Source: Okamejei kenojei
Lineage: Eukaryota
Assembly (NCBI GenBank): GCA_035221665.1
Contig: CM069145.1
Span: 7,006,001 to 7,070,000, forward strand
Reading direction: 5' to 3'
Length of the DNA stretch: 64,000 nt
A program made the translations under genes and the position numbers. The notes under the pieces were generated by a model. The model saw only the letters and a program-made list of their open reading frames with translations, ran no database searches and was not told where the DNA came from. Below, one piece after another: positions 490 through 60,485 of the stretch (the first letter of the stretch is position 1; the number at the start of each line of letters is the position of its first letter).

Positions 490-668
490 TGCCGGAGTAA
501 CTCAGCGGGACAGGCAGCGTCTCTGGGCAGAAGGAATGGATGATGTTTCGGGTCGAGATGCTTCTTCTGGTCTCAACCCTTCTCCCCAGAGATGCTGCCT
601 GTCCCGCTGAGCTACTCCAGCATTGTGTGTGCATCTTCGGTGTAAACCAGCAGCGGCAGTTTCTTCCG
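490..668. mobile_element. Short fold-back Penelope terminal-repeat element in CYP26C1 intron 2 (older related fragments at about 425-470 and 870-985)
   Basis: Inverted arms GGAGTAACTCAGCGGGACAGGCAGC...GCTGCCTGTCCCGCTGAGCTACTCC plus a one-sided GTAAACCAGCAGCGGCAGTT tail. The same sequence ends the GIY-YIG-containing copies elsewhere in the window. Confidence 0.75.
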
Positions 669-1059
669 ACGCAGCATTATCTTTGATATGTTCCCCAATC
701 AAAATATACTGCCGCCAACTATTGAAGTGAAGCTATACCCCTCTCCATTTTCCAGCAGTTTCTAGAAGATTGTTGTTCAGTGCAATAAATGTAAATAGCT
801 AATGATGCCCTTGGAACTAATTTATACCATGACCCTGGACTGATGTAATTTTCGCTTTTTACCGACTGCTAAATAGATGACGCTGCGGTTTTGGGTCGAG
901 ACACTGCATCCAGATGTTGCCCGACCCGCTGAGTTCTTCCAGCGGTTTGTGTGGGTTTTGTTTTTTTGCTCCAGATGCCAGCATGTGTCTGTGTTGTTGC
1001 CACTGGCAGCCGGCGGTGTGTGAGGAAGGGGGTGGCTCGGCGCCAGTGCAGCTACTTGC

Positions 1060-1284
1060 CCTCCTCCTGTGGCGGTGCAGCTCCCCGCTGGAGTTGGCCA
1101 GGGTGTTGGTGCCCAGCAGGATCCTGGTGCTGAGCGGCCACTGGGCGCTCACCAGACTGTGCTCGCCCATCAGGATCTTGCGGATGTTCTCGGCGCCCGT
1201 CACTCGGATCACCGGCCTGCCCAGCAGGTGCGTCTTGAAGACGTTCCCATATTTCTCTCTCCTGGAAGCGTGGAAGTTGGCACC
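1060..1284 (-). CDS. CYP26C1: CYP26C1 coding exon 2
   Basis: Acceptor ..CGGCAG|GGT. 225 nt encoding [75 protein letters not shown], with the CYP26 signature [21 protein letters not shown]. Ends at AGG|GCAAGT (GC donor). Confidence 0.93.
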
Positions 1285-1689
1285 CTGCCGCAAGGAAGGG
1301 AGAAGTCACCGGGAATCGAGGGCTGGGAATCATTCTAACTGCCCCCTCTAAACTGCTTCCGACGTCTGAAGACACCTGTAATTAACAATGAGTGCTTCCG
1401 AATGCTTGGGATTGAGCCTTCAATCACGCCTCGCCGCTGAGAACACAAACCCGCAAACCCACAAACCATTCTCATGCCCCAGTCAGCAGCGAGCGCCCAC
1501 AGCTTGCTGCCCGAGCTGCATTTGGAGCGGGTTCCCCCCGCAATGTCAAACCGGGCGGGCTCTGCGTGGGACGGTTCACAAACCAAGACACAGGGGTCTG
1601 CACGCTGCCACTTCGTTGCTATTCGCCACTTCCTTACCGTCCCCTCATCTGGAATATTACAAATCAGTCCATTATTTCTCTATAATTAG

Positions 1690-1868
1690 ACACAAAATGC
1701 TGGAGTAACTGACTCCGCGGGTCGGCCAGCATCTCCGGGGAGAAGGAATGGGTGAAGACACGTGTTCATTCCTTCTCTCCAGAGAAGCTGCCTGTCCCGC
1801 GGAGTTAGTTACTCCAGCATTTTGATTCTATCTTCAGTGTAAACCAGCAGCGGCAGTTCCTTCCTGCG
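1690..1868. mobile_element. Short fold-back Penelope terminal-repeat element in CYP26C1 intron 1
   Basis: Arms 1693-1750 and 1767-1824 are near-perfect reverse complements, followed by a tail to about 1868. Confidence 0.8.
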
Positions 1869-2348
1869 CAATTATTACTGTGCTCTCTGTGTGGGTAATC
1901 TGCCGACATAGACCTGAGCTTCAGTGAACGCGTGCATGTGGAGATTGGATAGTTTCCTTTCGGAAGGCAAAACTCGGCACTAAGGTAAACTCGACCAAAC
2001 GGATTCCCCCACGAGTTTATGAAGACTTAAAAAAAATAAACACAATTTTTGGAGGGATGTGATGGTCATATTATGACACCACCGTGTTTGGACTTTCTCG
2101 GGAGCAGTAAGGGATGGGGATGCACATCTACCAATATAGATGAGACGCGCAGAAAGGAACGCTGGTGACTGCATTTCGCTGCATTTCTATAATATCAAAG
2201 TACGAGTGTTCGCCAAGTGAAACCACCAAAAGCCAAACAGTAATTGAGCAGGGCGGACGCCCAGGTTAACTGCCCCACCCCTTGATATAAAACACCTCTC
2301 GGGCAGGATTATCCGCTTCGCTGCCGACTAGTGCCGACTCTTCCATAC

Positions 2349-8800: not shown

Positions 8801-9194
8801 GGTTGTGATTTTTTTTCCTGGCGCTTAATATGAGGCTACATTTGCCTGATAGTGATTGTGTTTACTGCTGCATTCGTATAAGTAGCTTTTCTTTAAGTCA
8901 AGGAGCTACTTTAGGGAAAGAAGCATTGAAGCCAGCATAAAGACAATTCATATGAAACCAACATCACATCTAGTTGAACAAAGGGAGCAAAAAAAATCCC
9001 AAACAGGATGGAGAGGAAACTGTTATTTTTTAATAGGGATGCAAATATACCTAATTGTGGCCACGTTTAAAGTTTAATCTCTTCACGACTAAAAAAAATA
9101 TTTTAAGTTATTGGTAATCAACCGAGTGGGTCTTTTGTCGCTGCAATGATTTGTCAGCAAGACATTAAAAAATAATCAGTAAATAATAACTTGT

Positions 9195-9335
9195 TTAAGA
9201 AGGAACTGCAGATGCTGGAAAAATCGAAAGTAGACAAAAAATGCTGGAGAAACCCAGCGGGTGAGGCAACATCTGTGGAGAAAAGGAGCAGGCGACGTTT
9301 CGGGTCGAGACCCTTCCTCAGACAATAACTGAGTT
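9195..9335 (-). mobile_element. Penelope 3' terminal repeat fragment
   Basis: AAGAAGGAACTGCAGATGCTGG...GGCGACGTTTCGGGTCGAGACCCTTCCTCAGAC matches the terminus of the 17473-19005 element. Confidence 0.8.
9292..9323 (-). ncRNA. Minimal type-I hammerhead ribozyme motif (Penelope type), best-preserved copy
   Basis: Minus strand reads GT-CTGAGGA-A-GGGT(CTCG)ACCC-GAAAC-GTC-GC: both catalytic-core boxes, helix II, palindromic ACGT at helix III and a GUC cleavage triplet. Helix I is very short and activity is unknown. Confidence 0.6.
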
Positions 9336-10189: not shown

Positions 10190-11605
10190 AAAGAACTGCT
10201 GGTTTATGAACAAAGAAAAGTGCTGGAGTAACGCAGCAGATTAGGCAGCATCTCTGGAGAACAGTTAGGTGGCGGTTTGGGTAGGGATCCTTCTTCGGAC
10301 TGTTTGTGGTGCGGGAGTGTGGAAGAGGGGGGAGAAAGAAGGTGGAAGAGATGGGAAGGATAAAGTGTTGGCAAGTAGTAGGGGTCACAGAGGAGATGCA
10401 GGTGAGGGATTCATCTATGAGAGCAGTGGAGGAATACCATGTTTACTAAAGACAGAGGACATCTCGGATGCCCTAGAATGTAAAGCCTCGTCTTGGGAAC
10501 AGATGCAGTGGCGATGGAGAAATTGAGAGCAGGGAATAGCTTTTTTTTTTCCCCAAATTGCTGGGTGGGAGGAAGTGTAGTCCAGATAACTGTGGAAGTT
10601 AATAGGTTTGCAGTGACATCAGACTCTAGTCTTTCCCCCGAGGGAGACAGTGAGAACAAAAAAGAGGTTGGTGACAGAGATGATCCAAATGAATTCAAGG
10701 GCAGGGTGGACGTTAGTGGTAAAGTAAATTAAATCAACAAGTTCTGTGTGAGTGCGGGATGCAGCCCCCAAGCGGTCGTCGATGTAGTGGAGTTGGGGGG
10801 GATAGTCCCCGTGTGCATTTGGAAGAGGAGTGTCCCTCCACCCTTTCTCTCACCTCCACCCAGGGACCCCAGCATTCCCTCCAGGTGAGACTGAGGTTTA
10901 CGCGGACCTCGTCTAACCTCATTTACTGCATCCAATGTTCACGATGTGGCCACACGTACATTAAGTGTCAACTCAGCGACCATTTCAGCCAACACCTGCA
11001 CTTGGTCCACCAAGGCCTACTGGATATCCCAGTTGGTAACATTTTAACTACTCATCCCATTCCCATATTGACCTTCCTGTCTTGGGCCTCCTCCAAAGCC
11101 AGAAGGCCACCACACATAAACTGGATGCACAGCACCTCATATTCCGCTCGGGCAACTTACACCCCAACAGCATGAATATTGAATTCTCCAATTTTAGTTA
11201 ACTTCAGGCCCCTCTGCTCCCTCCCACCTTCATTCCCTACACCTATTTCTTCCCCTCCCCTCCAATCTATGTCCCATCTGGACTCGCACCTATTACGCTC
11301 TTCCCCGTCCATCTCCATTCCTTCATCTTGCTTCACAATTTGCAACTCTTCAATCCTTTTGTCTCACACCTTCTATCTTTTAATCTCTAGCCTTTCTCCA
11401 ACCATCTGCCTATCAGACCCCTACCCCTCACCTGTATCTACCTATTACTTGCCAGGCTTCAACATGTTCCTCCTCTCTTCCAGCTTTCTTCCCTTCCTTC
11501 CCCCCCACCACAATCAGTCTGAAGAAGGGTCCCAACGCAAAACATCACCTATCTATGTTCTCAAGATGTGCTACCTGACCCACTGAGCTACTCCAGCACT
11601 GTGTC
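10190..11605. mobile_element. Degenerate Penelope-like element with inverted 5' part (minus about 10190-10810, plus about 10810-11605)
   Basis: The plus part encodes a GIY-YIG remnant (RFTRTSSNLIYCIQCSRCG..YI; ORF 10759..11175). The terminal repeat is present at both outer ends in opposite orientation. Confidence 0.8.
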
Positions 11606-12829
11606 TCAAACCAAGGCAAGTGGTGCAAAAATCATTTTAAAGCAATAATCTTGCACTCGCTATAAATATGACAATACAACCAGACCTTTTGGGACGTCAA
11701 TATACAATCAGAGAAAATTGATGAATCAGGTGAAAATGGCCAAACTAACATCAGTAATGGAAATATTTTTGAAGTGTAAAGAATGCCAGAGAGTGACTGT
11801 AATATAACAATAAAAATATTTGATGTGTATCAAGCAGCAAAACGATGCTTTGTTGATCTAGCTTAGTAAATGGCTTATGCCAGGAATTGCTATGACCCAT
11901 TAAACCATTAAGAAGGCTTAATTAATTAAACCATTAAGAAATCTCCCCTTCAGAAAGATATCATTCACTTTAGCACCTCATCATGAATCTTGGCCTTAAT
12001 TTTCCATCTTATGATCAAGCTATAATATCCATTTATTGTTATAAAACGTGTCCGTTTTATACCAATACCCGCTGTCAATGTGGTACTTTACAGTAGTGAA
12101 AATGTTTGCATGAAGACTTCATGAATGCCCCATAAAATGAAGATTTAAGGAGAGATTAATGAGAGTGGCATTCACGTGGAAGGATAAAGAGTTATTCTCA
12201 TATTAAAACATTAATGACTTCACTTGGGAAGATTAATGACAGAAAGCTTCATGTTGAAACATTATTGGGAGTGACCCTCATTAGCGCAATAATGAAGGTG
12301 ACTCACATAATGAAGAATTAATGAATGATACAAATTAAAACATTAATGAGTAACCTTTTGGGAAATCTTAAATTAGAATAATAGATATTGATAGTACCTT
12401 GAAAGATACTAATATGAAATGGTATAATTCCAAAATACAACAATCATTTCTAAATATCATGCAAAATTATAGCCGTTGATGAACATTACCCAGCAAAATA
12501 AAATCAAGACATTGAAAGTAACAATTAAAAAGTGCTCAGGGTTACTTTTATTGCAGAGTAGAAATAAAGTACTGCAATACATCAATGTACAGAATTTAAT
12601 ATCCTTCATTAATGTCTGTCTTATAAACAAGTCAACAAACTGGGAGGTCAAACAGTAAGATAACGGAGCTATACACCATATTTCCTATTGATTGTGCAAA
12701 GAAGGATCCGATCTGAAAATCAGAATGACACTACTATCATGTTTCTCCATTTGTTTTTGAATCAAGGTGAAAACTGTTTCTGAAAGGAGAAAATGGGTTG
12801 AAGTAGACCAAAAGTTATATTCCTTCTGA

Positions 12830-13548: not shown

Positions 13549-13681
13549 CTATGTGTGTTGCGACATGCCATTCACCAAACTGCGTAGTTGCTTCACTACT
13601 GTCTCGATTAGTTTCTGTTTATCACGGTCATTTTTTCTGAACTGAGAAAATATAATGTTTTTTTTGTTGGTATCTTTCATT
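13549..13681 (-). CDS. EXOC6: EXOC6 (Sec15A) last coding exon
   Basis: Acceptor TTTTGCAG|A. Encodes (K)MKDTNKKNIIFSQFRKNDRDKQKLIETVVKQLRSLVNGMSQHT* with TAG at 13551-13549. The ..RSLVNGMSQH ending matches EXOC6, not EXOC6B. Not in the ORF track. Confidence 0.95.
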
Positions 13682-13940
13682 CTGCAAAATAAATTAATGC
13701 CATTTTTAGTGTTTCATATCTGCTAAATTGAAATAAATGTTACCACATTAATACATCACCAAAAGAACACAGCATCCAATGCAGAAGAAATGATGTTCAA
13801 AAGTACAACTTGCAGTAGCATGTTATGTTAGAAGCATAAAGATCAGCCTCCCAATGTTCACTCTCCCCAAAGGTTTAGTCAGATAGCTCTGATATCTGTC
13901 CTCTGATTCACACTTAGTGTTGAACAACTGTCACACCAGA

Positions 13941-14163
13941 AGCACCGATCTACACTACACAAAGTAATCTCAATACCAAGTGTTAATAAAACTCAGCGGG
14001 CCAGGCAGCATCTTTGGAGGGAACGGATAGGTGACACTTTCGGTTGAAGAAGCATCCCAATCCAAAATATTGTCTGTCTATTCACTCCACAGATGTTGCC
14101 TGACCCGCTGAGTTCCATTAACATTTGGTATTGAGATCACTTTGTATAGTGTAGATCAGTGCT
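13941..14163. repeat. About 220-bp hairpin: fold-back Penelope terminal-repeat element with extra inverted outer arms
   Basis: 13941-14000 is the reverse complement of 14104-14163 with few mismatches. The inner part matches the Penelope terminal repeat. Confidence 0.85.
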
Positions 14164-14309
14164 ACACCCAAGTTCCAGAACTCCCTTCCCAAATCCGTCG
14201 ACTGACTTTTAATTTGAGAATTCTGCCATGAGATATGTTCCTCATTAAGTGCCGCTGGAACGTTTTGATTGCTGCTGTCCATCTGATCAGGGAGCTCTCA
14301 TGGTGATAT

Positions 14310-15038
14310 TCGGTGTGGCGGCGCCTTGTGGCTGCGGCTCACCTGTAGTCCGTCTGACTTTTTTCTTCTTTTTTTCGTCTTGTTAGAGTATGTTTTCGGT
14401 ATATTTTTAGTTGTGTATATTGGGGGGGGGGAGGGGGGGGAGGGGGAAACTTTTAACTTTTTAATCTTCCTTGACGGAGAGGTGGCCTTTTCCTCGTCAT
14501 GTCTCCATTTGTTTGGGCCTAACATCGTGGAGCCTCGGAGGCCTCACCATCGCGGAGCTGGCTGGCGCAGAGGCTGTGGTGGCGTGGCAGCCCGACTGCG
14601 GAGCTTCAGAGGCCTCGGCTGCAGGCCCTGTGGAAGGTAAAATCGGGAGCCCACAGGTCCCTGGAGTGAGACCGATTTCTGAGAGCTCCTGCAACGGCAA
14701 CTTCGCCCTGAATCGAGGGGTTTGAATCGGCCCGTCGCAGGGCCTTACATCGCCCGGTGAGGCTTAATCAGCCGCGGGACTTACCAACGCCCGCCGGGGG
14801 CTTTAACATCAAGAGCCTCAATCGCCTCGACGCGGGAGAAGAATAAAGAACAGGGAAGAGTTAAGACTTTTGCCTTCCATCACAGTGAGGAGGTGTTTGG
14901 AGATTCACTGTGATGGATGTTTGTGTGAAACTGTACTAATTGTGTATTATGTTTATTTTATTGTTATGAATGCAGGGAATGAAATTTCGTTCAAACCTCT
15001 GTCTGTTTGAATGACAATAAAGGTTATTTGTATTTCTA
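14310..15038 (+). mobile_element. Unclassified GC/CpG-rich non-autonomous retroelement-like insertion
   Basis: Abrupt GC-rich block in an AT-rich intron, with internal repeated GGAGC/GGCCTC/AACATC motifs and a 13-bp perfect hairpin TCCATCACAGTGA...TCACTGTGATGGA (14876-14917). The 3' end AATTTCGTT...GAATGACAATAAA resembles L2/Rex-Babar-type LINE tails. No credible ORF. Confidence 0.6.
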
Positions 15039-15199
15039 TTGGTGAAGTGGCTCCAGGATTTCAACACAACACTGAAGGAATTGAGATACATTTCCATGTT
15101 AGGTCATTGTGCGATTTTCTTAGGTGAACTTGCTTGGTGTGATTCTCAACAGATACAGATTTGGGAGATGCTACTGAATCAATTTTCTACACAGTATAT

Positions 15200-19005: not shown

Positions 19006-19199
19006 TCTTCTAATGTATTCTCTACCAATTTTCATTCCCATCCAAATAGATGTTCAATGAACTTCCACTTCAGATAGTCCACCTGTGATTGGTAATTAAA
19101 TTTGCACTGAAATCTAATCATGACTTGTAATTACTTTGTTGAAAAACTTCATTTAACTTTTGTTAAAATAAACCACAGTGAACCTGCAGCCCATATTCA

Positions 19200-45848: not shown

Positions 45849-47419
45849 TGTCTGGCTATTCCACCATAGAGACCACAACAATCTAATTCAGAGAGTTGAA
45901 ATCTCTAGATACAGTTGGAAATGGTGGTCTTATTTTGTCTTCTGTCATAATGTTATAGACCCATCATCTTCTGTTGCCACACTACTTTAATTCAATTCCT
46001 TGGTTTAAAGTAAAATTTAAATTGCCCTGTTTCATCGTTAAATGAAGTAAACTGAATGATGCTAAAATGACGATATGCAAAGTTTCTCAAGGTACCACAG
46101 AAAATGTATCAATTACAAAAGTGATTTTCTTTCCCCAAATTTGTTGGGGAAGAGATACCTCCCAAAGGTACACCATTTAAAAGTATGAAGGGAATGAACA
46201 GCGTGAACTCCCTCAAAACCACATTAGTCTGATGGAAAATTGAACATATTTCATGAACTTTCACTGGCAAGAAAAAAAATCTGAGGTCAGATCAGGGAAA
46301 GGAAGACCCGTTGCCAGGGTGAACATCTTTGGAAGGATGAATGTGCTGATTGGGAAGCTTAAATTTCTTAATTGATTCAGGACAATGTGGGTCTCTCGGA
46401 GGTATATTCAGTGACAACTTTGAATGGACCCCATGGTGCCAATGTGAGTTAATCAGGACTTTCAGGTGCAAAGGGAAAATTTAAATTTAACCAAACTGAA
46501 GGCATTTGCGATGAAGGGGACAGATCACCTCATTCACAAAAACTCCACATTTGCTCATTTTGTGATCTTGTACGGGAAAGGCATTATGGAATGCAGAGTC
46601 ACAATTTTTTTTAATTAGAGATTTGGGGGACACAGCTGGGGAAGGTATTTAAAATCAGAGAACATGTCCTACTTGAAGGAGTCCCTGGAGGAGAAAACAA
46701 ACAATGCTGCAGCCCAGTGGTGGCTCTGGGCTTTGTGTAAGGAGGTGAAGTTTGGGAAAGTGAATAATGCCTTACTGGCCTGGGAGCAGCATTTAAAGAC
46801 TCTGTTGATCTTGATCTCACGAAAGACTAATTGGACAAGTGTGGGTGGGTAGCACAGAGGATTAGCATTCCTTGATCTATTAAGAAATCTTTCTATAAGT
46901 CATATATACGATTACATACACATTGCAAGGTTTCACTATAGTTAGACCAACAAAGAAAATATAATATAAAATTGGACAAAATACATTTGTGGTTGCACGT
47001 ACACTGGAATTGCCAGTAATTAAGCTATTTTAAATAGGGTAACGATAAGAAAACAGAAATCTAATAAATGCTTAATACTAATCAGGGTATCATTTGCTAA
47101 ATGTATATCAAAACCCTTTTTTTGTTTCTAGGAATTCTAATAATTCTGAAATTGTTGAACTTGCTGACAAACTAGTTTTAATTTTCTTTTTAAAGTTTAA
47201 GTTGCAAAACTTAACCTAATGCTGTTATTCTTCCCCAAGTGGAATAATTATTCTAAATTCAAATTATGCCTATTCAACAACAGTTGAGTCACAAGGCCAC
47301 AAAAATGAATTAATCTTCATGCAAAATATTAAAGACTATTAACAATTTTGGCTGCTTTTCAAATCCACAATTATGTAAGTTGAAAACGTTAGTGAAGACA
47401 AATGTAAACATCTTAATCA

Positions 47420-48026
47420 TATAACATAACCATATATCAATTACAGCACGGAAACAGGCCCTCTCGGCCCTTCCAGTCCGTGCCGACCATTTATTTTCCC
47501 CTAGTCCCATCTACCCGCACTCAGACCATACCCCTCCATTCCCTTCACATCCATATACCTATCCACTTTACTTTTAAACGTTAAAATCGATCCTGCCTCC
47601 ACCACTTTTGCTGGAAGCTCATTCCACACAGCCACTACTCTCTGAGTAAAGAGGTTCCCCCTCACGTTACCCCGAAACCTCTGTCCCTTAATTCTCATGT
47701 CATGCCCTCTTGTTTGAATCTTCCCTACCCTCAATGTGAAAAGCTTATCCTCGTCAACTCTGTCTATCCCTTTCATCATTTTAAAGACCTCAATCAAGTC
47801 CCCCCTTAACCTTCTGCGCTCCAAAGAATAAAGACCTAACTTGTTCAACCTTTCTCTGCAACTTAGTTGCTGGAACCCAGGCAACATTCTAGTAAATCTC
47901 CTCTGTACTCTCTCTATTTTGTTGACATCCTTCCTATAATTAGGCGACCAAAATTGTACACCATACTCCAGAATTGGTCTTACGAATGCCTTGTACAATT
48001 TTAACATTACTTCCCTACTCCTATAC
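47420..48026 (-). mobile_element. Young 5'-truncated CR1 LINE
   Basis: ORF 47501..48007 (LYKAFVRPILEYGVQFWSP...IERVQRRFTRMLPG..RRLRGDLIEVFK..QRVVAVWNELP). Confidence 0.95.
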
Positions 48027-48199
48027 AGATCTTACAGTCAAAAAACAATTTACAACAGGGAACAAGAAATTGCAGATAAAATAATTTGGTTCTGTCTCCA
48101 AAGAGACCCAAAATTATTTCCCAGATATGCTAGGGTATGACGAAAATGAATTAAAAAGAATTAGTAATGGTAAAGAAAGGAGAACAGGTGAAATTAAAG

Positions 48200-49400
48200 A
48201 CTCAGTAAGATAGCAAATCCCCAGTCTGATAATCTGCAAACCAGAGCATTGAAAAAGCAAATATATAAGTTGTCATCTTCCAAAATTGTACACATTATTT
48301 TATAGTAGCTCCTCCAAATGTAATTTAAATATATTTTTTAAATGAAACAAGACAGAAAACTGTTAACCTATCATTGGAGACAAGGGAAAGTGCTAGAGTC
48401 TGTTACAAAGTAACACTCAGAAAATATCAAAAGGCTAAATATCATAAGACAAAGTCTAATTTATAAAAGGGGAATTGTCTTTGACAAACCTATTGGTGTG
48501 TTATTTTTTGAGGAAGTAACTGGTAGACAGTTAAGTGGAATTGGTGCATTTAGATTTTCAGGAGGCCTTCGATCCAGTCCGCATGTAGATGTTTAATGTG
48601 CAAAATTAAATTACCAATGATTGGGGGCATGTTGTATGGATTGAGAATTGGTTGCCAGACAGGAAAAGAGTAGGAATAAATGTGGCATTTTTAGGATGAT
48701 GCAAGCAATTAGTTGAGTTCTGCAGGGATCAGTGCTTGGACCCCACCATATCAAAGATTTGGATGCGGAAACTTAAGGTATTATTTCCGAGACTACTGAC
48801 AACACAAACTGAGCGGAAATGAGAGATGTGAGGAGGATGCAGACTTCAAGACAATTTGGACATGTTTAACGATCGGGCAAGTACATAGTAAATGCAGATG
48901 TGTACAGTGTACACAGAGCAGTTTAATATTAGAGAAAATCTAAAATGGGCATGTGATGTTAAATCTGTGGAGACCTTGTTTAAACTACAGTGTATTGTGT
49001 CCTGTTCAGGTCATCTTTGCCCTTAAGAACCAATCACTCTGGAACGTATATAAAACAGATTTATAATAATGTTACCAGAATTGAGAGGATGACACTGTCA
49101 AGAGTGATTGAATGGTCTCCAGTTCTTTTTCTCTGGGAAATAAACTAATAAAAAGCCACAGAGGGGTCATTAAAATTACAAAGAAATTTGATGGGGCCAA
49201 TATTGAAAAACTGTTTTCACCTATCTGGAACAAAAGGGCATTAAAAATAATAGAGCCACCAAGTAATAAAAAATAATGCTGAAGGTGCTAGGAATGCAGA
49301 CCCATCAGTCACATAGCACGACTCAAGTGGATGACATTGATACCTTTAAGGGAGGGCAAGATTTTTATGAGAGAACAGAGCGAAATGGAAGACATTAATT
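48200..49400 (+). mobile_element. Old degraded CR1 RT region
   Basis: Remnants of KSP.PD (AAATCCCCAGTCTGAT), LDFQ.AFD (TTAGATTTTCAGGAGGCCTTCGAT) and QGSVLGP (CAGGGATCAGTGCTTGGACCC). Confidence 0.75.
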
Positions 49401-49714
49401 GAAGGAGGCTTAGGCATAGGCAAATGTGAACAATACTATATATCTTTTGGACAAAAGAGGTGTTGTTGAATTTTAAGTAAGATATTATGCAGACCTATTG
49501 AGAACAATATTTGCTTTAGCGACCCAAGAGACCACAGATCATAGAATCGAGATCAGGAAGGGTTTGAAGAAGTAGGCGGCTTTGGTGGGAAGCAATGGGT
49601 GAACCTGAAAACCTTGGTTCACTGATCCCTTCCCATCGGCAGCTATGTTCCCTTCCATCCGCAGAAGATGCAACATTTGTCCTCCCTTCCTCAGGCTGCT
49701 TGAAAAGAAATGTC

Positions 49715-50425
49715 ATCAATCCAAGGAGCCCAGCAGCCCTTCCAGGTGAGGTGGTTCACATGTACCTCCTCTAACCTCATCTACAGCCCAATGGTGCCTT
49801 CTTTACACGGTGACACTAAACACAGACTAGGCAACTGTATCACCAAACACTTGCGTTTGGTCTGCCTAGGCCTGTTGAATTTCCCACTTGCTAACCATTT
49901 TGATTCTCCTTACCATTCCCATATCAACCTCTCTGTCCTGGGCCTCCTCCATTGCCAGAGTGAGGCCACACGTAAAGCAGAGGAAAAGCACCTCATATAC
50001 GGCTTGTGTGTGTTTCAACCCAACAGTCTCAACATTTCATTCTCCAATTTTAGGTGACACCCGTCCCCCCACACCCCTCCCCAACCCAGTGCACCCCCAT
50101 TTCTCGCACTATTCCACCTCCCCCCCCCCCCAACCTACCCCCCTCCCTCTGGCCTTACTTTTACATGGTGACCCTTTTGCGTCCTTTCATCGCTAACCTT
50201 CATCCACGCATCTGCCAATCACATACCCCCCTCACATGCATCCACCAGTCATTTGCCAGGCTTTATCTCGCTCCACCTCTTTTTTCCAGCTTTCTTGCCC
50301 CTACTACAATCAGTCTGAAGAAGGGCCCCGACCCAAATCATTGTCTCTCCATGGCCCTCCAAAGATGCTGCCTGGCCACTCAGTTGCTCTGGCACTGCGT
50401 TCTACTCAAGATTCCAGCATCTACA
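49715..50425 (+). mobile_element. Degenerate Penelope-like 3' fragment
   Basis: ORF 49710..50057 (FQVRWFTCTSSNLIY...PLANHFDSPYHS..LSVLGLLHCQSEA), followed by the terminal repeat. Confidence 0.85.
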
Positions 50426-51166
50426 ATGTGTTGTATCTTACAGTTTCCATTACACAGCTCAATTAGTTGGAAGTTTCCTTCTTAATGAATGTAAGCTTTC
50501 CAAATCTATATTAAATGGGAGAACAGCAAACTGGATGATCCAAGTAATTGAATTCTTCCAAGGAAGAAATAAGGTGTCCCACGATTCATAAAATCCAACT
50601 TGTAATTTACATATATGTCCCAAGCACAAAAAGTCATTCCATGACTACCACAGGAATTCCACCGAGTTTAAAACATGCCACACTGCGCCATAACATGGCA
50701 AAGCATTGCACACGAGAAAAACCCTTCCAAAATATAGATACTATTCCGTAATGGTCAAAGTCGCTTAATCCATATGATAGAGCTACCTTAAAACTTCAGA
50801 CAAATTAGCATAATCCCCTTAATATAATATTGCATCTCAAATATTTTAGAGAGATCCATTGGATATTAAACAGCAAGTAGGTGCAGAGAAATAATGAATA
50901 ATACTGGCAAAAAGAGAGCTCTAGAAGAAAACCAATTGCTGTGGTTACATTTTAGAAAGATTTCTGAGTATACGATTAAACTGTCACTACCAAGTCAAAA
51001 GAACAATATAGGCTTGAAATTGTTATTGGTGACCATAATGAATGCTTAATACAGACATCAGACTGGTTGCTATATAAACAAGCATTCATTTGTTTATTTT
51101 AAATGGGCGAGTTTCTGTGTTGTGTTGATTTTTTAAAAAATGTTCCAGAAGCCTGCTTTAGGAAAG

Positions 51167-51490
51167 CAGCACAATGGCACAGCAGTTATCACTGCAGCCT
51201 GGCATCTCCAGAGGCTCAGGTTTGATCCTGATCTTGGGTGCTGCCTGTGTGGAGCTTGCATGCTCTCCCCATGACCAAATGGATATCGCCTAGGTTCCAT
51301 CCCATGTTATAAAGATTGTAATGATACACATTATATTGATTGCTAGATTAACTGGCAAGTGACAGATGAATTGGGATGGGGAGGGAAGAGAGGGGTCCAG
51401 GAATAAAAACTGGTCATCATAGAAAAAATAGTTTAGTGGAAGATTACACTGGCATAGCAGTGAGTGGTAGGACCATGCTGTATGACTCTT
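51167..51490 (+). mobile_element. Degraded HE1/V-SINE-like element
   Basis: GGTTTGATCCTGATCTTGGGTGCTGCCTGTGTGGAGCTTGCATGCTCTCCCCATGACC. Confidence 0.65.
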
Positions 51491-51549
51491 TGAACACCCA
51501 TGGCATTTTACTTTTATTTTACAACAATTTTGAACCTAATTTATCTTTA

Positions 51550-52922
51550 AGAAGTGCTGAAGGAAGTCAGCTGGTTGGGTAACAAACATCTCTGGAGAAT
51601 TTGGTCAGACAATGGTTTGGGTCAGGACTCTTTTTCAGACTAATTGAGTAGGGCTGAGAAAGCTGCAAAAGATGCGAGGTAGGACAAAGTCCGGCAAGTG
51701 ATAAGTGGATACAAATGCGTGGGGTGCAGGGGAAGGTTCGATGGAAATATGGGTGGAGTAAGTGATAAAAGCTAGACGGTGTCAGATAAGGAGTGAAACT
51801 TAAACCCTCGATGGTGGGATATTGGAGGAATGAAATGGGAGACTCGTGGATGGAAGGAGTGTGCAAAAGTGGGGAAAGGTGCAAGGTGACTGGGATTGTG
51901 GGAGACGGTGGGAGGGATGTGTGCACATTGGGTGAGGGCTGGGCAGGGAAAAAGAGAGGGTGGTGGTATTTGTTGAAAATGGAGAGTTCAATGTTCTTAC
52001 TGTTGGGTTGTAAAGTACCCAAGGTGATGGTTCCTCCAATTTGTGAATGGCCTCATTCTGGCAATGGAGAAGGCCAATGACAGAAAGCTCTGTATTAGAA
52101 TGAGAAGGGCATTAAAATTGTTGAAAACCAGGAGGTCAGCAGGCCTTGGCAGTCAGAGCACAAGTGCTCGGTGAATCTGTCACCTAGTTTTTGATTGGTC
52201 TCACCAATATAAAGGAGGTCGTATTGGGAGCACAGAATGTGGTTGACAAGTAGACACCTGCCCCTACGCTTCCTCTTCATTTAGGAACCAAGAGGAGATC
52301 GTCAAAGTGAAGCCACCCTCATACCAGAGAACCAGCATGTCATGTTTTACTTACGTAGTTTTCAACCCAACGATAGGAACATTTATTTTTGCAATTTCAA
52401 GCAATATTTCCTCTGCCAGTCTCATTGCCCTGCCCCCCACCACTGTGTACATACATTTCTGCCACCATCTCCCACCCCTGCTCACCCTGTTCCTTTCCCC
52501 TCCTTTATACACACAATGCCCATCCTTGAGACCCCCATCTCATTTTATCCACCCCCCCCCCCCACCCCGTCTCACCCCCATCCCCTTCGTAGCATATTCC
52601 TTCCACCGGGTTTATATTTCACTTCTCTTCCCTTCTCCTTATCTCACTCCTTTTGTCCTTTTCATCTGTAGCTTTTGTTACATTCTCCAATCATCTGCTC
52701 ATCCAACCCTATCCCCTCATCTGTGTCCAGCTATCACTTGCCAGGCTTTGTCTCACCCAGACTCCTCTTTTCCAGCTATTATTCCTCTACTCAAATAAGT
52801 CTGAAGGGTCCCGACCCAAAAACATCACCTGTCCAATCCTTTCATAGATAATGCCTGACTCAGAGTTCCTCCAGCACTTTGTGTTTTACTCAAGATTCCA
52901 GCATCTGTAGTTTCTTGTGTCT
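51550..52922. mobile_element. Old Penelope-like element with inverted arms (minus about 51550-52260, plus about 52270-52922)
   Basis: ORF 52095..52280 (..LLYIGETNQKLGDRFTEHL) is a GIY-YIG remnant. Terminal repeats occur at both outer ends. Confidence 0.8.
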
Positions 52923-53292
52923 CTAGTTTTTCTAAAGTTTGAAAATACAAACCGCAAAGTCGGTGGGTCGGGAACTGGGGAGAAAAATATGGATACAAAT
53001 TCATTTTATTATTAGCTTTTGTATATAACTGCTGAAACTACTTATATTTCAGCAGCATAATTCCCATCTAAAAAAATTACCATGGTCACCGGGAGGTTTG
53101 GTTCATGAGCGGATGCAGTAGTACAGCAGCTTTGATGGGTAAAGGTTATTATCGAGGAACATTACAGGTATTTGTAAAGATCTTAATATTAAGTTATGAG
53201 AACGCAAGGAATTTGATTCTGTAAACTGCTTGCACTCCTACAAGAGCCCTGGGTTAAAATTTTAAATAATCTTGCCATATCATGTGACTCTA

Positions 53293-53665
53293 AATAGACA
53301 ATAGACAATAGATGCAGGAGTAGGCCATTTGAGTCAGCGTCGCCATTCAATGTGATCATGGCTGATCATTTCCAATCAGTACCCCGTTCCTCCCTTCTCC
53401 CCATATCCCCTGACCACTATTTTTAAGAACCCTATCTTGCTCTCTCTTGAAAGCATCCAGAGAACCTGCCTCCACCGCCCTCTGAGGCAGAAATTTCCAC
53501 AGACTCACCACTGTCTGTGAGAAAAATGTGTTTCCTCGTCTCCATTCTAAATGGCTTACTCCTTATTCTTAAACTGTGGCCCCTGGTTCTGGACTCCCCC
53601 AACATCGGGAACATGTCGGGAACATGTTTCCTGCCTCTAGCATGTCCAGGCCCTTAACAATCTTA
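53293..53665 (-). mobile_element. CR1 3' fragment, same subfamily as 34178-34928
   Basis: MFPMLGESRTRGHSLRIRSK is identical to the 34-kb copy. (AATAGAC)n tail. Confidence 0.92.
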
Positions 53666-53954
53666 AGTAAGTAATGGCCATCAAAACATCATCATAATGT
53701 ACAATTTTTCTATCAAAATTCAAAAAATGTTAGGCATGGCACTAAAAAAAAAAGATATAACAGGCAAGAAAAGACCAGCTGGCGGCTGACGGATTATGAA
53801 TAAATACTTCCTACTGACATATGAAATATCATCTCTTCAGCATTCACATCCACCTTCTGTAATTTATTTGGACACCACTGGTTAATAACTCTTCTTTTTA
53901 TGTCTTGAGTTTCTTCATAACAAAATGCTAGATGCATCCATAACTTAATATCTT

Positions 53955-55452
53955 ATACCCTCATTATAACAGACCATAAGGGGGGTGGGGAATGGTGTCC
54001 GTGATTGCCGATTGTCTGCTACAACCGAGTAAAGTATTATCATTATGCAAGTAGTAAAAACATAGAACTGCATGATGGTTAATACACAAAATGTCACAAA
54101 GTACTGGAGGCACTCAGCACGTCAGGCAGTATTTCTGGAGAACATGGGTAGGTGATGCCGTGACCGTTTTTCAGACTGATTCAGTCTGATGAGTTACTCC
54201 AGCACGTTGTGTCGTTTCACATTAAAACTAAGTGCTGGTGCCGTTGATCTACACCCGTGAGCTGTTGCATGGTCCGGTTGAGGCGGCTGTTGTTACGGCT
54301 CACATCGTAGTCCCTGGTTGGCATAGCTTCCTTCAGGCCACTGCCAATGCGAGGACACGCATGGTCACGGCGGGGCTCCCTCCCCACTCACCAGCTGCCC
54401 CTTCATGTTCGCCGTCGTTTTGTCCACTCACCGCTTCCAAGATCTTCCGAGACTCTGGGGGAAGAAGAGGCCCAGTGGACAGAGCGACGGGAAAAGGAGA
54501 AGGCGGCGGCGGTGGAGGGGAGGAGGTGGATGGAAAGAGGCAGAAATAGAAGTTGTGATGTCATCTTGCAGTTGCATTAGACGTTGGTGAGACCGCATTT
54601 TGGAATATTGTGTTCAGTTCTGAGCAGCATGTTAGAGGAAAGATATTGTCAAGCCTGAAAGGGTTCAGAAAAGATTTACGAGGATGTTGTCTGGACTAGA
54701 GGGTGTGAGCTATATGGAGAGGTTGAGTAGGCTGGGTCTCTATTCCATGGAGCGCTGGAGGATGAGGGGAGATCTTATAGAGGTGTACAAAATCATGAGA
54801 AGACTAGATCGGGTAGATGCACAGTCTTTTGCCCAGAGTAGGGGAATCAAGGACCAGAGGACATAGGATCAAGGGGGAAAGATTTAATAGGAATCCGAGG
54901 GGTAACTTTTTCACACAGAGGATGGTGGGTGTATGGAACAAGCTGCCAGTGGAGGTGGTTGAGGCTGGGACTATCCCATTGTTTAAGAAACAATTAGACA
55001 GGTACATGGATAGGACAGGTTTGGAGGGATATGGACCAAGCGTCGGCAAGCGGGACTAGTGTAGCTGGGACATTGTTGGCCGGTGTGGGAGAGTAGGGCC
55101 GAGGGGCCTGTTTCCACACTGTATCACTCTATGACTCTAGGCGGAGTAGACAAAGTGACGGGCTGGCAGCAGAGGAGCGGTAGCTGGTGAGAGGAGAGGA
55201 GCCCCACAACGACCGAGCACGTCCAGTCGTTGGCAGCAGCCTGAAGAAAGCGCTGTCCCAGGGGCTACAATGCGCGTCGCAACAACAGCCGTGCCAACTG
55301 CGAGTTAGGAAGTGCTTGCTGGTGCACTTTGCGAGCCAGGGGTGGTGTCAGGAGACGGGCTGTATACGCGGTGCGAGCTGGGTGGCATCGGCAGGTCCGT
55401 CTGCTATAACCAAAATCAGTTATAAAGGGGTCCATTAAAACAAGGGTTTACT
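53955..55452 (-). mobile_element. Non-autonomous Tigger/pogo-like DNA transposon, copy 2, interrupted by a CR1
   Basis: The right end ..GGGGTCCATTAAAACAAGGGTTTACTG|TA is the reverse complement of the copy-1 start. The left end CCCTCATTATAACAGACC.. matches the copy-1 end. Confidence 0.7.
54555..55138 (+). mobile_element. CR1 3' fragment nested in the Tigger-like element
   Basis: ORFs 54684..54866 and 54817..55059 (MRGDLIEVYKIM; FFTQRMVGVWNKLP) and a CACTCTATGACTCT tail. Confidence 0.92.
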
Positions 55453-56958
55453 GTATATTCAATTTAATTGTCGTTAAATGTTATAAAGCCTATTCACAGG
55501 CCGTTATTGCTTTCAAATTTTCTTATGTCTAAAGATATGCATGCACCAGCACTTCGATGACTTTACATTAAAGAAACTAATTACCTTCTACTATTCTTGG
55601 ATTTGCTTGTTCTGGAGTTCTTTTTAAAAAGGCAAGAGCCTCTGAAATTAATTGTCTCACTGTCAATACTTAATCCTTACACGCTGCCATCTATTAACAA
55701 TACCTTTAATCAATGGCATGTAAAACACACATCAGATTACACAGTCTAATTAAAATGTACAACTATGTGTTCGGAAGAACTGACTGGCATTACTTGAAAT
55801 GGTTTCTCAGAACTCTCCAGGATCATTGATCACCTTGCATTTAAGGCAGGATATTAAAGTTCAGATTTTCCCAGGCAATAAAGAAATCTTCTTGCAGATG
55901 AAAGAACTGAATAAACTATTTTTTAAATTTTTGACTGCTCTGCATATAGATTAACTTCTAAAATATAACCAAATATTTTCTTAATACCACATATCATTAA
56001 TAGAAATGAAATTTAATGAAACTCTTTGATCGAGTGTTGATTTTAATATGACAACATTATCTCAATGCATATGGTCAAACTCAGGATTTTAAAACAGAGT
56101 TTGTTCCTACATCCCAACTAATCCTAATCATCCACAATCTTTTAAATTAAGGGAGAAAGGGAGCTGCTATTGAGACAGCCAGCTTCCATTAGTGATCTAA
56201 TGATTGGCAGTGGGATCATGACCTCTCAATCTCGGGTCACTTACTTTTCTAAAAAGGGCAATCCCACTGATCCATCTTTTAGCCACAGCTTCTCATCCAA
56301 TCCCAAGCCTCTTGCCTTTTAGCTTTGATTTGGTCAGGCTTTCCTTGGTATCACTCTCTACCTGTCATCAGCTCTTCTGTAAAGCGGTGCAAATATCAAG
56401 ATTCTAACCCTGGGGCACACTCAGGGTGGGCAGGTAAAACCTGGCCACTGGAGTTACTTCCTTATCTTTCAGAACCTCCAAGGCATGGCAGAGTATCAAA
56501 TTCAAACTGGAGAACAGTACATGAAACAGCCAGATGCCCCAATGGAGAGGTTCCTTATAAAAGGCACTGTTTCCTCAGACTGCTTGAAAAGAAATGTCAT
56601 CTATCACATTAAAAAATAAATGGATCATAGGATTGTATGACAGGGAAATTGGCACATGTTATTCATACTGCAGGAGAGTGCTGATAAACACAAGTGCTTG
56701 TGTTTTTCTGCATTCCAGATATATCGTCACTCAAGGCAGAGAAACTGAAAGAGGTTTAAGGCCGGTTGATTAATGGGAAAAAATATGATCCCTTATGAGA
56801 ACATTGTACTAAAGCTACTTTACATCAAACAAAAGAAAAAGTTTAAAGCATGTTATTAACACAATGATGCAGCTAGATTAAGATTTGCACCCAAGATATC
56901 TATGTATTTATATATCTATTTTCTTTGCTCAGAATGTTTGCATGCAAAACAGACACCT

Positions 56959-57440
56959 GGATTTATACTGCACCTTTTGGGACCATGAAAAGTCAAAAAG
57001 CACTTTACAGCCAATGAAGTATCTTTAGAACTGCAATAATTATTGTGAAGTGAAAAAGATGACTACACGGCAAATTTCTACAATTGACACAAGGATGCTT
57101 GAATCTTGAGTGAAATACAAAGTGCCAGAGAAACTCAATGGGTTAGGCAGCATCTGGGGACAAAAATGGACAAGTGACGTTTCTGTTCGGGACCTTTCCT
57201 CAGAAATTCGAACAATCAATATAATAAGTAGGTGATCAATTCAGTGATGTTGATTCAGAGATAAACATTGGTCAGGATACCAAAGATAATTACTTTGCTG
57301 TTCTTTGTAACAATCAATAACATAGAATCTTTCATACTAACATGAGCGAGCAGATATCAAGGTCTAACAGCACAACATAAAGAAAATAGCTCCACTGACA
57401 AAGCAGCACTCCGGCAGGGATGGGCATGCAGAATAAAATC
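56959..57440 (-). mobile_element. Ancient DeuSINE-like remnant interrupted by a Penelope terminal fragment (about 57085-57205)
   Basis: Tail AAAGCACTTTACAGCCAATGAAGTA and Deu-domain-like GATGTTGATTCAGAGATAAACATTGGTCAGGATACC. Confidence 0.55.
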
Positions 57441-59868
57441 ACCAAGTTGAGAAGCAAAGACCACAAATAAATTGGGAAAGACAACACTAAATAATATTTT
57501 AAAAAGAGCCTTCTGTTTATGATGCCTAAACTGTGTTGTAAGTTACCCTAATACAGTTTCTTTATATAAAAAAACATAAAAATACAACAAATGCTGGAAA
57601 TTTGAAATAAAACTAAATACTAGGTTAGATGTATGGAGATAGGAGCACATTAACATTTTAGGTTGACAACATTACATTAAAGGTAGCAGATCAGAAATTC
57701 AGGTCTCTTTCATCATTTCTGATGCATGGCCATTGAAAACATAATTCTGTTCTCTCCCCACAGAATCTGTCTAAACTGCTGAGTGTTTTTGAAATATTGT
57801 TTTATCACCATTTTCAAAGTCTCTTAAAGATTGACAGCGAGTCCCTTTGCTTAACATTGCACCAGTTTCATGCAAGAATTTGCAGCTGCAATCCTGGGGG
57901 CTAGTCTTTAGAAGGAACACTGGCTCAATACAAGCATCATTCTTCCAGCTTCCGGAGAGTCCTACTGTTCCAAGAATTGACGCAGCAATTATGGGAAGGG
58001 GGCAGGGGTGCAGGAGGGAGAAACAATAAACTTGTGGAATACAGCACAAGTTTGATCTTCACGTCTTCTACCTGCAGGTGGGTAATTATGGCAGGTTGCT
58101 TGCTATAAGGCAGAGGGTATTACAATGCAAGACAAGTCTAGGAATGTTTATGCTTTGGGAACATCTGCAATGGTAGTTTAGATTAGGGCTGAAAGAAATT
58201 ATAAAATCTTCTCTCCTCAATTCTGGAGCGTGAACAATAAACTGCATGATGTGGCATAGATTGGCTGAATGTCATTGCAAGGAAGCTGATTTTCCATGGT
58301 CTAGATCAAATCCAAATCCCAGTGGGAACTAGCTTCCATGTCTCTTCCACCTGGGTCTGAGAGTTCACATACAGGTCTATTTCCATGCTATTCCCACTGG
58401 AACTATTCCCACTGGAAGTCCGTCTGGAGTTCAGAAAAATCATTTAGACTACAATAAAGGTCTAGAATAAAGAGTGAACAGTGTGCATCATGGCTTGTGT
58501 TCTGCTGCAGCACGAGGAGTTTATAGCAATTTCATGAGACTATACGTTAGAAAAAGCTGGCTGTTCCGCAAGTAATAAGAACCATCAGTTTTTGGAATGG
58601 TAAGGTTATAAATCACAGTGAAGATGAATCCTAGGTGTGGCATTATTATTGACATTGCACTATTTTGGAAAACAACCACTTCTTAAACTTCCATTTACTA
58701 TTTACTTTTATTATTAACTACGTCCTCCCATGTGAAAGTAGAAATGGTTAGACTGCAGAGCTAATTTTGGTGGGTAAAAGTGGTCCTGCCTAAAATGGAT
58801 TAGGTCTTAACATTAGAAGGAAACCTGATTGTTCAATAGGATTTGACAACAAGATGTTTTTCTCATGAAAGGAAAGGAAGGGAATTTCATTAGGAGCCCT
58901 ATACTGGATGTCATTCCTCCTCTTCTCATGTGAAACCATTCCCTTGTTATAGGCTTCCCATTGTTCTCATCTTTGTTTTGCCTCTAGTTTCAGTTTCTAA
59001 TCAATTTACAATAGATCCTCTTCACTCAAGAGCTTTTCGTCAGACCTGGCATAGATAATGTAGCAAAGGGATCAATAGCAGAATCTGCCTGGTGACAATC
59101 AGGGAACAATGCAGGAGGTACTACACCTCTGGGTTTACCATCAAGTTGCTAGAGGGGATAGAGGAGAATCTGAGCAGGAAGATTTCAGAAAGATGAAGGA
59201 ACTTCAGTAGTCAGAAGGAATTTTGTTTTTCATGTTGCTAACATAGACCGAAAAAAGTGAAACTTTCCCAAAATTTCTGCAAGAAACCCTGATCCAAGTT
59301 CATCAAGGAAGCAAAATTATAACTGTACTGGAAATGGTGAAATCATGTATGGTTCAGCAGGGTGCATTTGGAGAACATAATCGTGACCAAATACTCAAGT
59401 GCAAAATATTTTCCAGAAAAGGGTTTAGTTAAAGAGATCCAACCAAAATGGATTGAAATTTCAAATGGATCTGCAATGGAGGATCTACAAATAGACAAAA
59501 GAACCATGCTTAAAAAATAAAATGAACCAAAAGAAAAAGGAGAAAAGACAATGACAAAATATTAAAAAGCTAACCTGAAGGGAATGCAAAGGTCTTTCAT
59601 AAATATACAAATAACAAGAGAGTTGTAAAATAGTAAGTTGCTTAGCGACCACAAAGAGGTGCAAAGTATACTAAATAAAGATGTTGCCAAAACAGGTGGT
59701 AGTGATTTTGATGAGGCAAAAATAAAGAGGTGGTATGTCGAAGGTTGGCAAGGTTACATTTAGAAATGGTCCGAACAAGATGTTTTATACATTACTACAA
59801 ACTGTAAGATTCTCTACATAGCTTTCCAATAAAAGAACAAAGAGATTGAAAATAATACAGAATATTCT

Positions 59869-60186
59869 GGGCAACATGGTGATGCAGCAGTAGAGTTGCT
59901 GCCTTACAACGCTTGCAGCACCCGAGTCCCGGATTAATCCAGACGAAGGGGTGCTGTCTATACGGAGTTTGTACGTTCTCCAGTGACTACGTGGGTTTAC
60001 TCCGAGATCTTTGGTTTCCTCCCACACTCCAAAGACGTACAGGTTAGTAGGTTAATTGGCTTGGTATAAATGTAATTTGTCCCTAGCGTGTGTAGGATGG
60101 ACTTAATGTACGGGGATCGCAGGTCGGTGCGGACTCGGTGGGCCGAAGGGCCTGTTTCCACGCTCTATATCAAACCAAAACTAAAA
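59869..60186 (+). mobile_element. Near full-length HE1-like SINE
   Basis: tRNA-like head GGGCAACATGGTGATGCAGCAGTAGAG, central GGAGTTTGTACGTTCTC..GGTTTCCTCCCACACTCCAAAGACGTACAGG, and CR1-like tail GGGCCGAAGGGCCTGTTTCC. Confidence 0.9.
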
Positions 60187-60289
60187 CATCGAAAGGAAAA
60201 GGGATACACCCTGTTATCACAGGCTTATCAGTCCATTAGTGGAGGTAACCATAATATGGCAAAATACTATTTGCTGGAGGAATCTTGAG

Positions 60290-60485
60290 CAAAGTACAAA
60301 GTACTGGAGGTACCCAGCAGGTCAGCCAGCATCTGTGGAGTGAAAGGACAGACAATGTTTCAGGTCTGAGGCCCTATCTATATAAATGTGTTCTGTCCAT
60401 TCTCTTCACAGATGATGCCTGACCTGCTGAGTTCCACCTGCATTGTGTTTTGCTCAAACTTCCCACATCTGCAGTTTCCCGTGTA
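60290..60485. mobile_element. Older fold-back Penelope terminal-repeat element
   Basis: Inverted arms CAGCAGGTCAGCCAGCATCTGTGGAG...TTCACAGATGATGCCTGACCTGCTG. Confidence 0.7.

Follow-up and report, generated by a model that had tools for sequence, protein, structure and literature searches.

What is the small repeat with a hammerhead ribozyme motif that is scattered through the 3' part of EXOC6 and its surroundings in the skate Okamejei kenojei, and why are so many of its copies so short? We consider this question in a stretch of 64,000 nucleotides (contig CM069145.1 of assembly GCA_035221665.1, positions 7,006,001 to 7,070,000, forward strand), called the window below. An earlier reading of the bare sequence (the original prediction) had proposed that it holds about 20 copies of a repeat derived from a Penelope-like element (PLE). 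In our explanation the repeat is almost certainly a PLE pseudo-long terminal repeat (pseudo-LTR) with a minimal hammerhead, the element very probably belongs to the Neptune clade, and the hammerhead motif is broken in nearly every genomic copy. The short copies, or stubs, may be run-off copies of capped, uncleaved RNA that starts 2-3 nt before the CUGA box; we put the chance of this last part at even or somewhat below. The explanation as a whole (Neptune-type pseudo-LTR, mostly broken hammerhead, run-off stubs) we hold with a probability of roughly 0.7.

The 35-nt motif sits inside a longer module of 100-140 nt, which emerged from repeat searches and a profile built from 8 copies. This profile matches 33 module arms in the window at E<0.01, with no match in 10 shuffles or in the reversed window, and three further very short arms (26340-26377, 39609-39640 and 54184-54215) were recognised by eye. 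The arms group into about 23 insertions, of which 13 are head-to-head pairs. The predicted number of copies is thereby borne out, and the five sites described as intact, like those with CAAAA or TAAAA in the second box, all lie where the prediction had placed them and on the same strands. Nor was it mistaken in supposing a very large family. Contigs matching 17462-17720 at at least 80% identity number 104,969, 103,028, 105,168 and 10,731 in four sequencing runs from three organisms (that is, about 103,000-105,000 in each of three DNA runs), figures that count assembled contigs of a run, not reads or genomic copies. The density in the window is about one insertion per 3 kb; extrapolated from this one window to a 2.2-Gb skate genome (bioRxiv 10.1101/2025.06.08.657570), it would give several hundred thousand insertions. 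A pattern scan of viral contigs returned 0 matches. Metagenome contigs returned one (L001), which was dropped as a chance match within a bacterial open reading frame (ORF).

The identity of the element can be read from the long copies, where the module lies 100-330 nt 3' of the stop codon of an ORF for a GIY-YIG endonuclease (EN), beyond a tract of 69-84% pyrimidine. The GIY-YIG domain matches Pfam PF01541 (E=1.3e-4), and tblastn places endonuclease remnants at six loci, thumb sequence of the reverse transcriptase (RT) at 18093-18353 and, in one arm only, the RT motif YIDD with the start of the thumb at 10427-10792. With GIY-YIG and RT remnants directly upstream, the predicted origin from a PLE pseudo-LTR holds and can be refined to the Neptune type. 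The linker that separates RT from EN contains CX4CXXC at 18114(-) and 18446(+), each time with a stop. Among 158 related proteins compared, a GIY motif can be recognised in 97, and 92 of these carry CX2-5CXXC upstream of it; the named relatives come from Leucoraja and Rhinoraja (skates), Hypanus (stingray), Rhincodon (whale shark) and Stegostoma (zebra shark), and two of four full-length relatives scanned have both RVT_1 and GIY-YIG. In the literature, a CX2-5CXXC finger marks Neptune and Nematis as opposed to Poseidon (PMC3846280, PMC8557442), and Neptune and Poseidon are the only PLEs reported in vertebrates (bioRxiv 10.64898/2026.07.22.740005). On these two points we assign the element to Neptune by its linker, and the Penelope/Poseidon clade was rejected since the Cys-rich linker is present.

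Several observations on the coding part may be added. With a possible ORF start inside the module in mind, we note that an ATG in the stem downstream of the hammerhead is open in one tail type and meets an early stop in another; no full-length relative matched the module. The RT-GIY-YIG gene model of Stegostoma tigrinum (P0008) reads through its own pyrimidine-rich 3' region and ends, at residues 508-518, in the peptide LMKGLRPKRQ, to be compared with LRKGLDPKRR for the skate hammerhead in frame; going by this back-translation, the zebra shark relative probably carries the same hammerhead motif. Two skate gene models, P0001 (Leucoraja) and P0002 (Rhinoraja), have an N-terminal part from the host joined by splicing to the element's linker and GIY-YIG domain, which is either exonisation or an annotation artefact.

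The arms end at one of two 3' sites some 35-40 nt apart, giving forms without and with a tail. In 8 of 12 pairs scored by hand the tail is on one arm only, no pair (0/12) has a full tail on both, and the remaining four have partial or damaged tails or tails of another subfamily; the old 36868/37081 pair was excluded, which leaves 12 of the 13 pairs. Target duplications scoring at least 10 flank 4 of 19 inserts, as against 1 of 500 random pairs. Head-to-head arms, a one-sided tail and a target duplication together make up the published PLE architecture, in which an inverted 5'-truncated arm is joined to a copy with a tail at one end (PMC8557442). The original prediction had seen much of the family as tiny non-coding derivatives. 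Tiny copies are indeed many, but because they share the two 3' ends and the junction style of the long copies, they look like products of an autonomous element and not like a separate non-coding family.

In the tailed arms, for instance at 9184-9275(-), a 9-bp stem pairs the module body with the tail, with a smaller hairpin inside it. Subfamilies differ in the spacer of the tail but keep the pairing arm; about 5 of 11 tailed arms show the stem when folded to minimum energy, with weak z-scores (-1.1 to -1.5). It is a candidate RT-binding element.

As to the ribozyme, its predicted elements (hammerhead core, helix II, a palindromic ACGU and an NUH site) fit the published minimal layout (PMC4209133, Fig. 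S3): CUGANGA and GAAA boxes, an extra base after A9, G10.1-C11.1, the palindromic ACGU and GUC. That both boxes are intact in five copies is literally right. With helix II required as well, a descriptor scan leaves four (9321-, 18915+, 24916- and 44262-; 100 shuffles gave a mean of 0.34 and a maximum of 2), and the majority sequence of the young copies fits the same description. A full minimal hammerhead, with palindromic ACGU, NUH and a helix I of at least 2 bp, is found in only one copy, 9292-9323(-), and in 0 of 100 shuffles; its predicted cut is between 9294 and 9293. A C.A mismatch at 15.2/16.2 is present in the copies at 18912 and 24886 and a U.U mismatch in the one at 44232, while helix II is broken at 57173. 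Helix I has 2 bp (U-R, G-Y), or 3 bp with a bulged 1.2. Rfam gives no hammerhead match in the window even at E<=1, only a chance match to a small Cajal body-specific RNA model on a GT repeat; we infer that this reflects its canonical hammerhead models.

The genomic copies decay at CpG, the general base G12 included. Of 19 aligned copies, 10 have A in place of G12, and 11 of 20 no longer have G16.2. By contig depth at 17462-17720, G12 is intact in 62-75% (with a reference biased toward the broken allele), C15.2 is present in 69-87% and G16.2 in about 90%. Across 20 decayed genomic copies the helix positions are paired in 82% of cells, without any two-sided change.

Would an undamaged copy cleave? 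Naked RNA is predicted to misfold rather than adopt the active fold. In the predicted monomer fold of the complete copy the first box pairs with the downstream C/U tract and helix II has a probability near 0. In nearest-neighbour folding of monomers, opening the core costs +9.5 kcal/mol for the complete copy and +5.2 for the young majority sequence, and in dimers the double hammerhead lies about 19 kcal/mol above a misfolded dimer; these energies ignore tertiary contacts. The predicted misfolding agrees with reports that minimal hammerheads cleave weakly (PMC4209133), that the hammerhead of the anole element PAc cleaves only with protein while its unprocessed RNA is used as template (PMC11167929), and that 1 of 9 Xenopus hammerhead dimers was active (bioRxiv 10.64898/2026.07.22.740005). 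We are on balance inclined to think that, given some suitable condition, cleavage of the master element does take place in vivo.

With cleaved RNA as template, one would expect stubs to start at the cut. Among the short arms 0 of 23 start within 2 nt of it, and 4 of 23 fall in a 12-nt interval there (P 0.26). Around C3 the picture is different: 11 of the 23 5' ends lie at -7..+4 (binomial P between 1e-5 and 4e-4 for different null ranges), an interval picked after the contig junction data had been seen. These 23 ends exclude the 10 long arms, and those at 41478, 14045, 39517, 26378/54092 and 19583 were set by eye. The junctions in the contigs point to the same place. Among the 24 loose ends listed of 1383, those on the 5' side that run into unique flanks occur behind 17602 in all four runs, with C as the first flanking letter in 4 of 4, and behind 17603 in three of four runs, with C in 2 of 3; none of those listed is at the predicted cut. 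The flanks are AT-rich and random (agreement about 0.31, median length 129-249 nt), so that A or T would be the expected first letter. Of the 12 short-insert joints listed among 393, 8 leave the module at 17602-17604, five of them with a single extra C, which on the plus strand corresponds to an untemplated G in the sense strand. Head-to-tail joints, too, reuse this start (15 listed of 118): it is joined either to the tail end (17602->17480, 123 nt, in 12, 14, 10 and 2 contigs) or to the end without tail (96-97 nt).

These ends coincide with a plausible start of transcription. The initiator consensus is YYANWYY, and 8 of 10 long copies match it at -3. Position 17603, where the 5' ends pile up, is the A, the putative +1, of such a match, TCAGTCT. 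The Penelope element of D. virilis has an internal TATA-less promoter with an initiator (PMC2377424), and in full-length L1 inserts an extra 5' G reflects capping (PMC11702581). A downstream promoter element at +28..32 was considered; it is a partial match, shifted by 3 nt, to the Penelope RGACGTGY and was not counted. We also note recurrent joints from 17602-17604, with an extra C, to 17566-17570, just past the 3' strand of helix I. Joints of this 17603->17567 type may be either fold-back of complementary DNA (cDNA) through helix I or tandem duplication of a 36-37-nt hammerhead.

Other explanations of the stubs have to be set against a start of transcription at this position. They could be ordinary 5' truncations, the RT having been blocked at the C/U-rich tract, where the nascent cDNA is G-rich, or the junctions having gathered at microhomology in CTGA or the palindrome, in which case the clustering of ends simply marks the block. 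The pyrimidine content of the upstream region (69-84%) speaks for this, as do the 12 of 23 short arms that end elsewhere and the presence of CTGA in the core and again in the stem downstream, with several junctions in the window using it (39609, 54184). A block does not readily account for ends in random flanks at two exact positions ahead of the tract with C as first letter, or for head-to-tail joints sharing one start, as they do among the ends and joints listed, and we consider truncation unlikely, though a serious contender. Could the boundary instead be a splice acceptor, the stubs being copied from spliced RNA? Pyrimidine tract, CAG and helix I in succession do make a good acceptor, and in D. 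virilis Penelope an intron ends at helix I (PMC4209133). Yet the loose ends share no upstream exon (agreement 0.31), the listed skips of the 3' region have TG, GT or GG..AA at their plus-strand ends, which are not sense intron ends, and AT-rich, flank-like sequence directly abuts the 5' end of the stub at 9184-9323; splicing is in our opinion highly improbable.

The stubs might also be a separate non-autonomous family, similar to retrozymes or short interspersed elements, that is transcribed in tandem, cleaves itself as a dimer, forms circles and is mobilised by a PLE in trans; of the alternatives this comes nearest to the tiny non-coding derivatives of the original prediction. Head-to-tail joints of 96-123-nt units do occur in all four runs, and animal retrozymes derive from PLE pseudo-LTRs and are found in one chondrichthyan (bioRxiv 10.64898/2026.07.22.740005). 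Against this, no tandem copy is found among the 33 arms of the window, each tandem joint is seen in 1-14 contigs among about 100,000, the units are bounded by the proposed start and the RT-start ends and not by the cut site, none of the 23 short arms begins within 2 nt of the cut, and the double hammerhead is energetically remote from the misfolded dimer. This makes an origin of this kind improbable. Finally, some intronic copies could be ribozymes that benefit the host by cutting EXOC6 pre-mRNA or read-through RNA. The original prediction had pointed to copies in the sense of the EXOC6 pre-mRNA, and 12 arms in the introns are so oriented; moreover the complete copy, which has the EXOC6 sense too, follows an AATAAA by about 20 nt. 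But another 12 intronic arms are antisense, which leaves no bias, none of the intronic copies is complete, four AATAAA sites come earlier, and in the monomer the first core box is predicted to be trapped with helix II practically absent. The orientation thus stands and the role lacks support; a host function of this sort is scarcely credible.

Returning to run-off from a capped start as the source of the stubs, and to the Neptune pseudo-LTR behind it, contig depth counts in favour of our explanation: relative to one another, the values are 0.9-1.3 within the module, 0.03-0.07 immediately upstream and 0.04-0.13 where the ORF ends. Other points weigh against it. Subfamily divergence of the 3' region also lowers the upstream values. 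At 5' junctions within the window there is no clear extra G, and most of them abut an inverted arm with microhomology. From the rows listed in the contig tables, an excess at the start over neighbouring positions or over the cut site is not derivable. The match to the initiator does not count as independent evidence, since it coincides in part with the conserved core and was scored in related copies, and the proposed start is equally a good splice acceptor, with its pyrimidine tract and CAG. The start site is a proposal read from DNA junctions, and cleavage is a prediction. The window contains no full-length element, and the Neptune placement goes by the linker. As for excess conservation of the core and of helix pairing, to which the original prediction had looked, G12 is lost as described, and covariation among the 20 decayed copies is 0.102 against 0.100 after shuffling (222 of 500 shuffles as high), with neither helix supported.

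How could the stubs then be made? RNA polymerase II would start at the initiator-like TCAGTCT, its A+1 lying three nt ahead of C3. No more than the initial 2-3 nt of the transcript would then form the 5' strand of helix I (U-R, a bulge, G-C, A-U), and helix I would be so short because this strand is the transcript's first three bases. The element's RT/EN would nick AT-rich DNA, and RT would prime internally about 90 or 125 nt from the 5' end of the RNA, beside the body-tail stem-loop. Internal priming at two sites beside a stem-loop has been described in vitro for the Poseidon element of anole (PMC11167929). Running off the capped 5' end, RT would add an extra G and leave a stub of 90-125 nt with an uncut hammerhead. 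The inverted arm would be primed from a second nick or by fold-back, and long copies would come from read-through RNA of tandem arrays. In this scheme stubs would not need the ribozyme, which in the master element would cleave only in dimers or when aided by protein.

If correct, the ribozyme would sit at the very start of the mRNA and its cut would remove the 30 nt that bear the cap, so that it might serve as an off/on switch that decides between translation and copying, not as a processor of unit-length RNA. Helix I of the cDNA might in addition prime the inverted arm, as the joints from 17603 to 17566-17570 would suggest. We tentatively propose that one Penelope element has left some hundreds of thousands of its reaction products as fossils in skate genomes, and that both ends of its template are recorded in them; if so, no hammerhead family in any vertebrate would be more numerous.

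The features of the window are collected in Table 1. The last EXOC6 exon is 100% identical to EXOC6 of Amblyraja radiata and 98% to that of rays, and the two introns between the last three coding exons hold 24 module arms. The complete hammerhead lies outside them, about 4.2 kb downstream of the EXOC6 stop codon; the AATAAA about 20 nt ahead of it (9343-9323(-)) is itself preceded by four others. Further downstream of EXOC6, at 859-1305(-) and 2328-2687(-), are first exons of a cytochrome P450 gene (Pfam p450), which we take to be CYP26C1-like, with three module insertions within the introns of this gene. A Tc1/mariner DNA transposon occupies 31184-32686, with inverted repeats of about 220 nt that are 89% identical and a transposase remnant at 31574-32137. 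A second family, of long interspersed elements and presumably CR1/HER1-like, is represented by 3' fragments at 34236-34929, 35954-36252, 47501-48031 and 53294-53665, and also at 36656, 42371, 45597 and 59928. An assembly gap of 209 N is at 5685-5893.

Table 1. Copies of the module and host exons in the window (positions count from its first letter)
Feature	Positions	Strand	Remarks
EXOC6, last three coding exons (host gene)	61768-61856, 24420-24533, 13552-13680 (gene span 13552..61856)	minus	
Short stub with tail; only complete minimal hammerhead (9292-9323)	9184..9323	-	C3 at 9321; 5' end 2 nt before CUGA
Model head-to-head insertion	17473..19002	both	tailed minus arm 17473-~18126, untailed plus arm ~18095-19002; target duplication of 12 nt; each arm has remnants of GIY-YIG, the CX4CXXC linker, the pyrimidine-rich 3' region and the hammerhead motif
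Minus-arm hammerhead motif	17573..17603	-	C3 17600, H17 17573; G12 and G16.2 lost by CpG decay
GIY-YIG remnant and Cys-rich linker	17710..18141	-	one stop in linker; PF01541 E=1.3e-4; tblastn
Head-to-head insertion	10190..11606	both	minus arm: YIDD and thumb start 10427-10792; plus arm: GIY-YIG remnant 10831-11198; 14-nt imperfect target duplication
5'-truncated copy	44163..44662	-	GIY-YIG remnant; hammerhead mismatched in helix III; part of the tail; imperfect target duplication of 12 nt
Older-subfamily copy	49687..50438	+	GIY-YIG remnant, tail
Older head-to-head insertion	51550..52925	both	minus arm no tail, plus arm tail; endonuclease remnants
Short stub with tail	19545..19676	-	13-nt target duplication; 5' end within first core box
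Short head-to-head pair	39517..39677	both	minus arm ends at CUGA box, without tail; plus arm tail; 13-nt target duplication
Short head-to-head pair	483..676	both	no tail / tail
Short head-to-head pair	1684..1879	both	no tail / tail; palindromic junction
Short head-to-head pair, other subfamily	13941..14163	both	one and the same different 3' extension on both arms
Head-to-head pair	24826..25131	both	plus arm begins 1 nt before CUGA
Copy extending into pyrimidine-rich region	25268..25557	+	G12 lost
Short head-to-head pair	26340..26512	both	no tail / tail
Short head-to-head pair	41403..41595	both	no tail / tail
Short head-to-head pair	54090..54215	both	tail / no tail; both arms begin a few nt before CUGA
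Short stub with tail	57085..57204	-	begins 1 nt before CUGA; broken helix II
Short head-to-head pair, older subfamily	60270..60484	both	partial tail / tail
Oldest, most decayed head-to-head pair	36868..37200	both	
Short stub with tail	16973..17085	+	begins inside helix II

We know of several systems to which the skate family can be compared. With the minimal type-I hammerheads of PLEs (Cervera and de la Pena 2014, PMC4209133) it shares CUGANGA with the extra base, G10.1-C11.1, GAAA, the palindromic 15.2-16.2, NUH and the lack of a helix III loop. Those motifs, too, are mostly single, dispersed and from truncated PLEs, and some form close pairs on opposite strands. Helix I of the skate motif is weak in comparison with published minimal hammerheads, although 2-bp helices exist in the list of that paper. 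The list (its Fig. S3) is without a chondrichthyan, and the parts of the paper that were searched make no mention of shark, Callorhinchus or Leucoraja. The skate density implies far more motifs than the 4,000-9,000 given there for coelacanth and Xenopus. Minimal hammerheads in PLEs are already known; what the skate family adds to them is elasmobranchs, at very high copy number. In the literature searched, to which Repbase/Dfam, subscription papers and the supplementary tables of the retrozyme preprint (with its one chondrichthyan) did not belong, neither this skate family nor a cap signature in PLE stubs is described, and the passages of PMC7229834 and PMC6155905 are likewise silent on both.

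Non-LTR retrozymes (PMC7229834; bioRxiv 10.64898/2026.07.22.740005) resemble the skate family in their short units with type-I hammerheads and their kinship to PLE pseudo-LTRs, and rare tandem units exist in the skate as well. They differ in being arranged in tandem, in having canonical hammerheads for the most part and in forming circular RNAs, whereas the skate copies are dispersed, solo or head-to-head; with no tandem in the window and only rare tandem joints in the contigs, the retrozyme class was rejected. PAc of anole, a Poseidon element (Frangieh et al. 2024, PMC11167929), offers a closer parallel in its two adjacent RT starts, which define a tail and lie about 60-100 nt 3' of the cut, its AT-rich targets and its unprocessed RNA template. 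The skate element differs from it in having a Cys linker, which Poseidon lacks, and the ORF of PAc begins in the hammerhead. Neither clustering of 5' ends nor an extra G is described in the main text or text supplements of the PAc paper.

With Neptune itself, the skate element has in common the RT, the Cys-rich CX2-5CXXC linker, the C-terminal GIY-YIG domain, the inverted 5'-truncated arm, the tail at one end and the target duplications; in the window it is known from truncated copies and was assigned by its linker. The role of the hammerhead in PLEs with an endonuclease has been stated to be unclear (PMC8557442), and the origin of inverted arm and tail is an open question that the pattern of ends could inform. 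Ribozyme scans of shark and ray genomes should expect to be flooded by dead copies. The same abundance, however, makes the family a natural census of junctions in the assembly of any skate, large enough to examine whether capped, uncleaved RNA is the template, at which sites RT begins and by what means inverted arms are primed.

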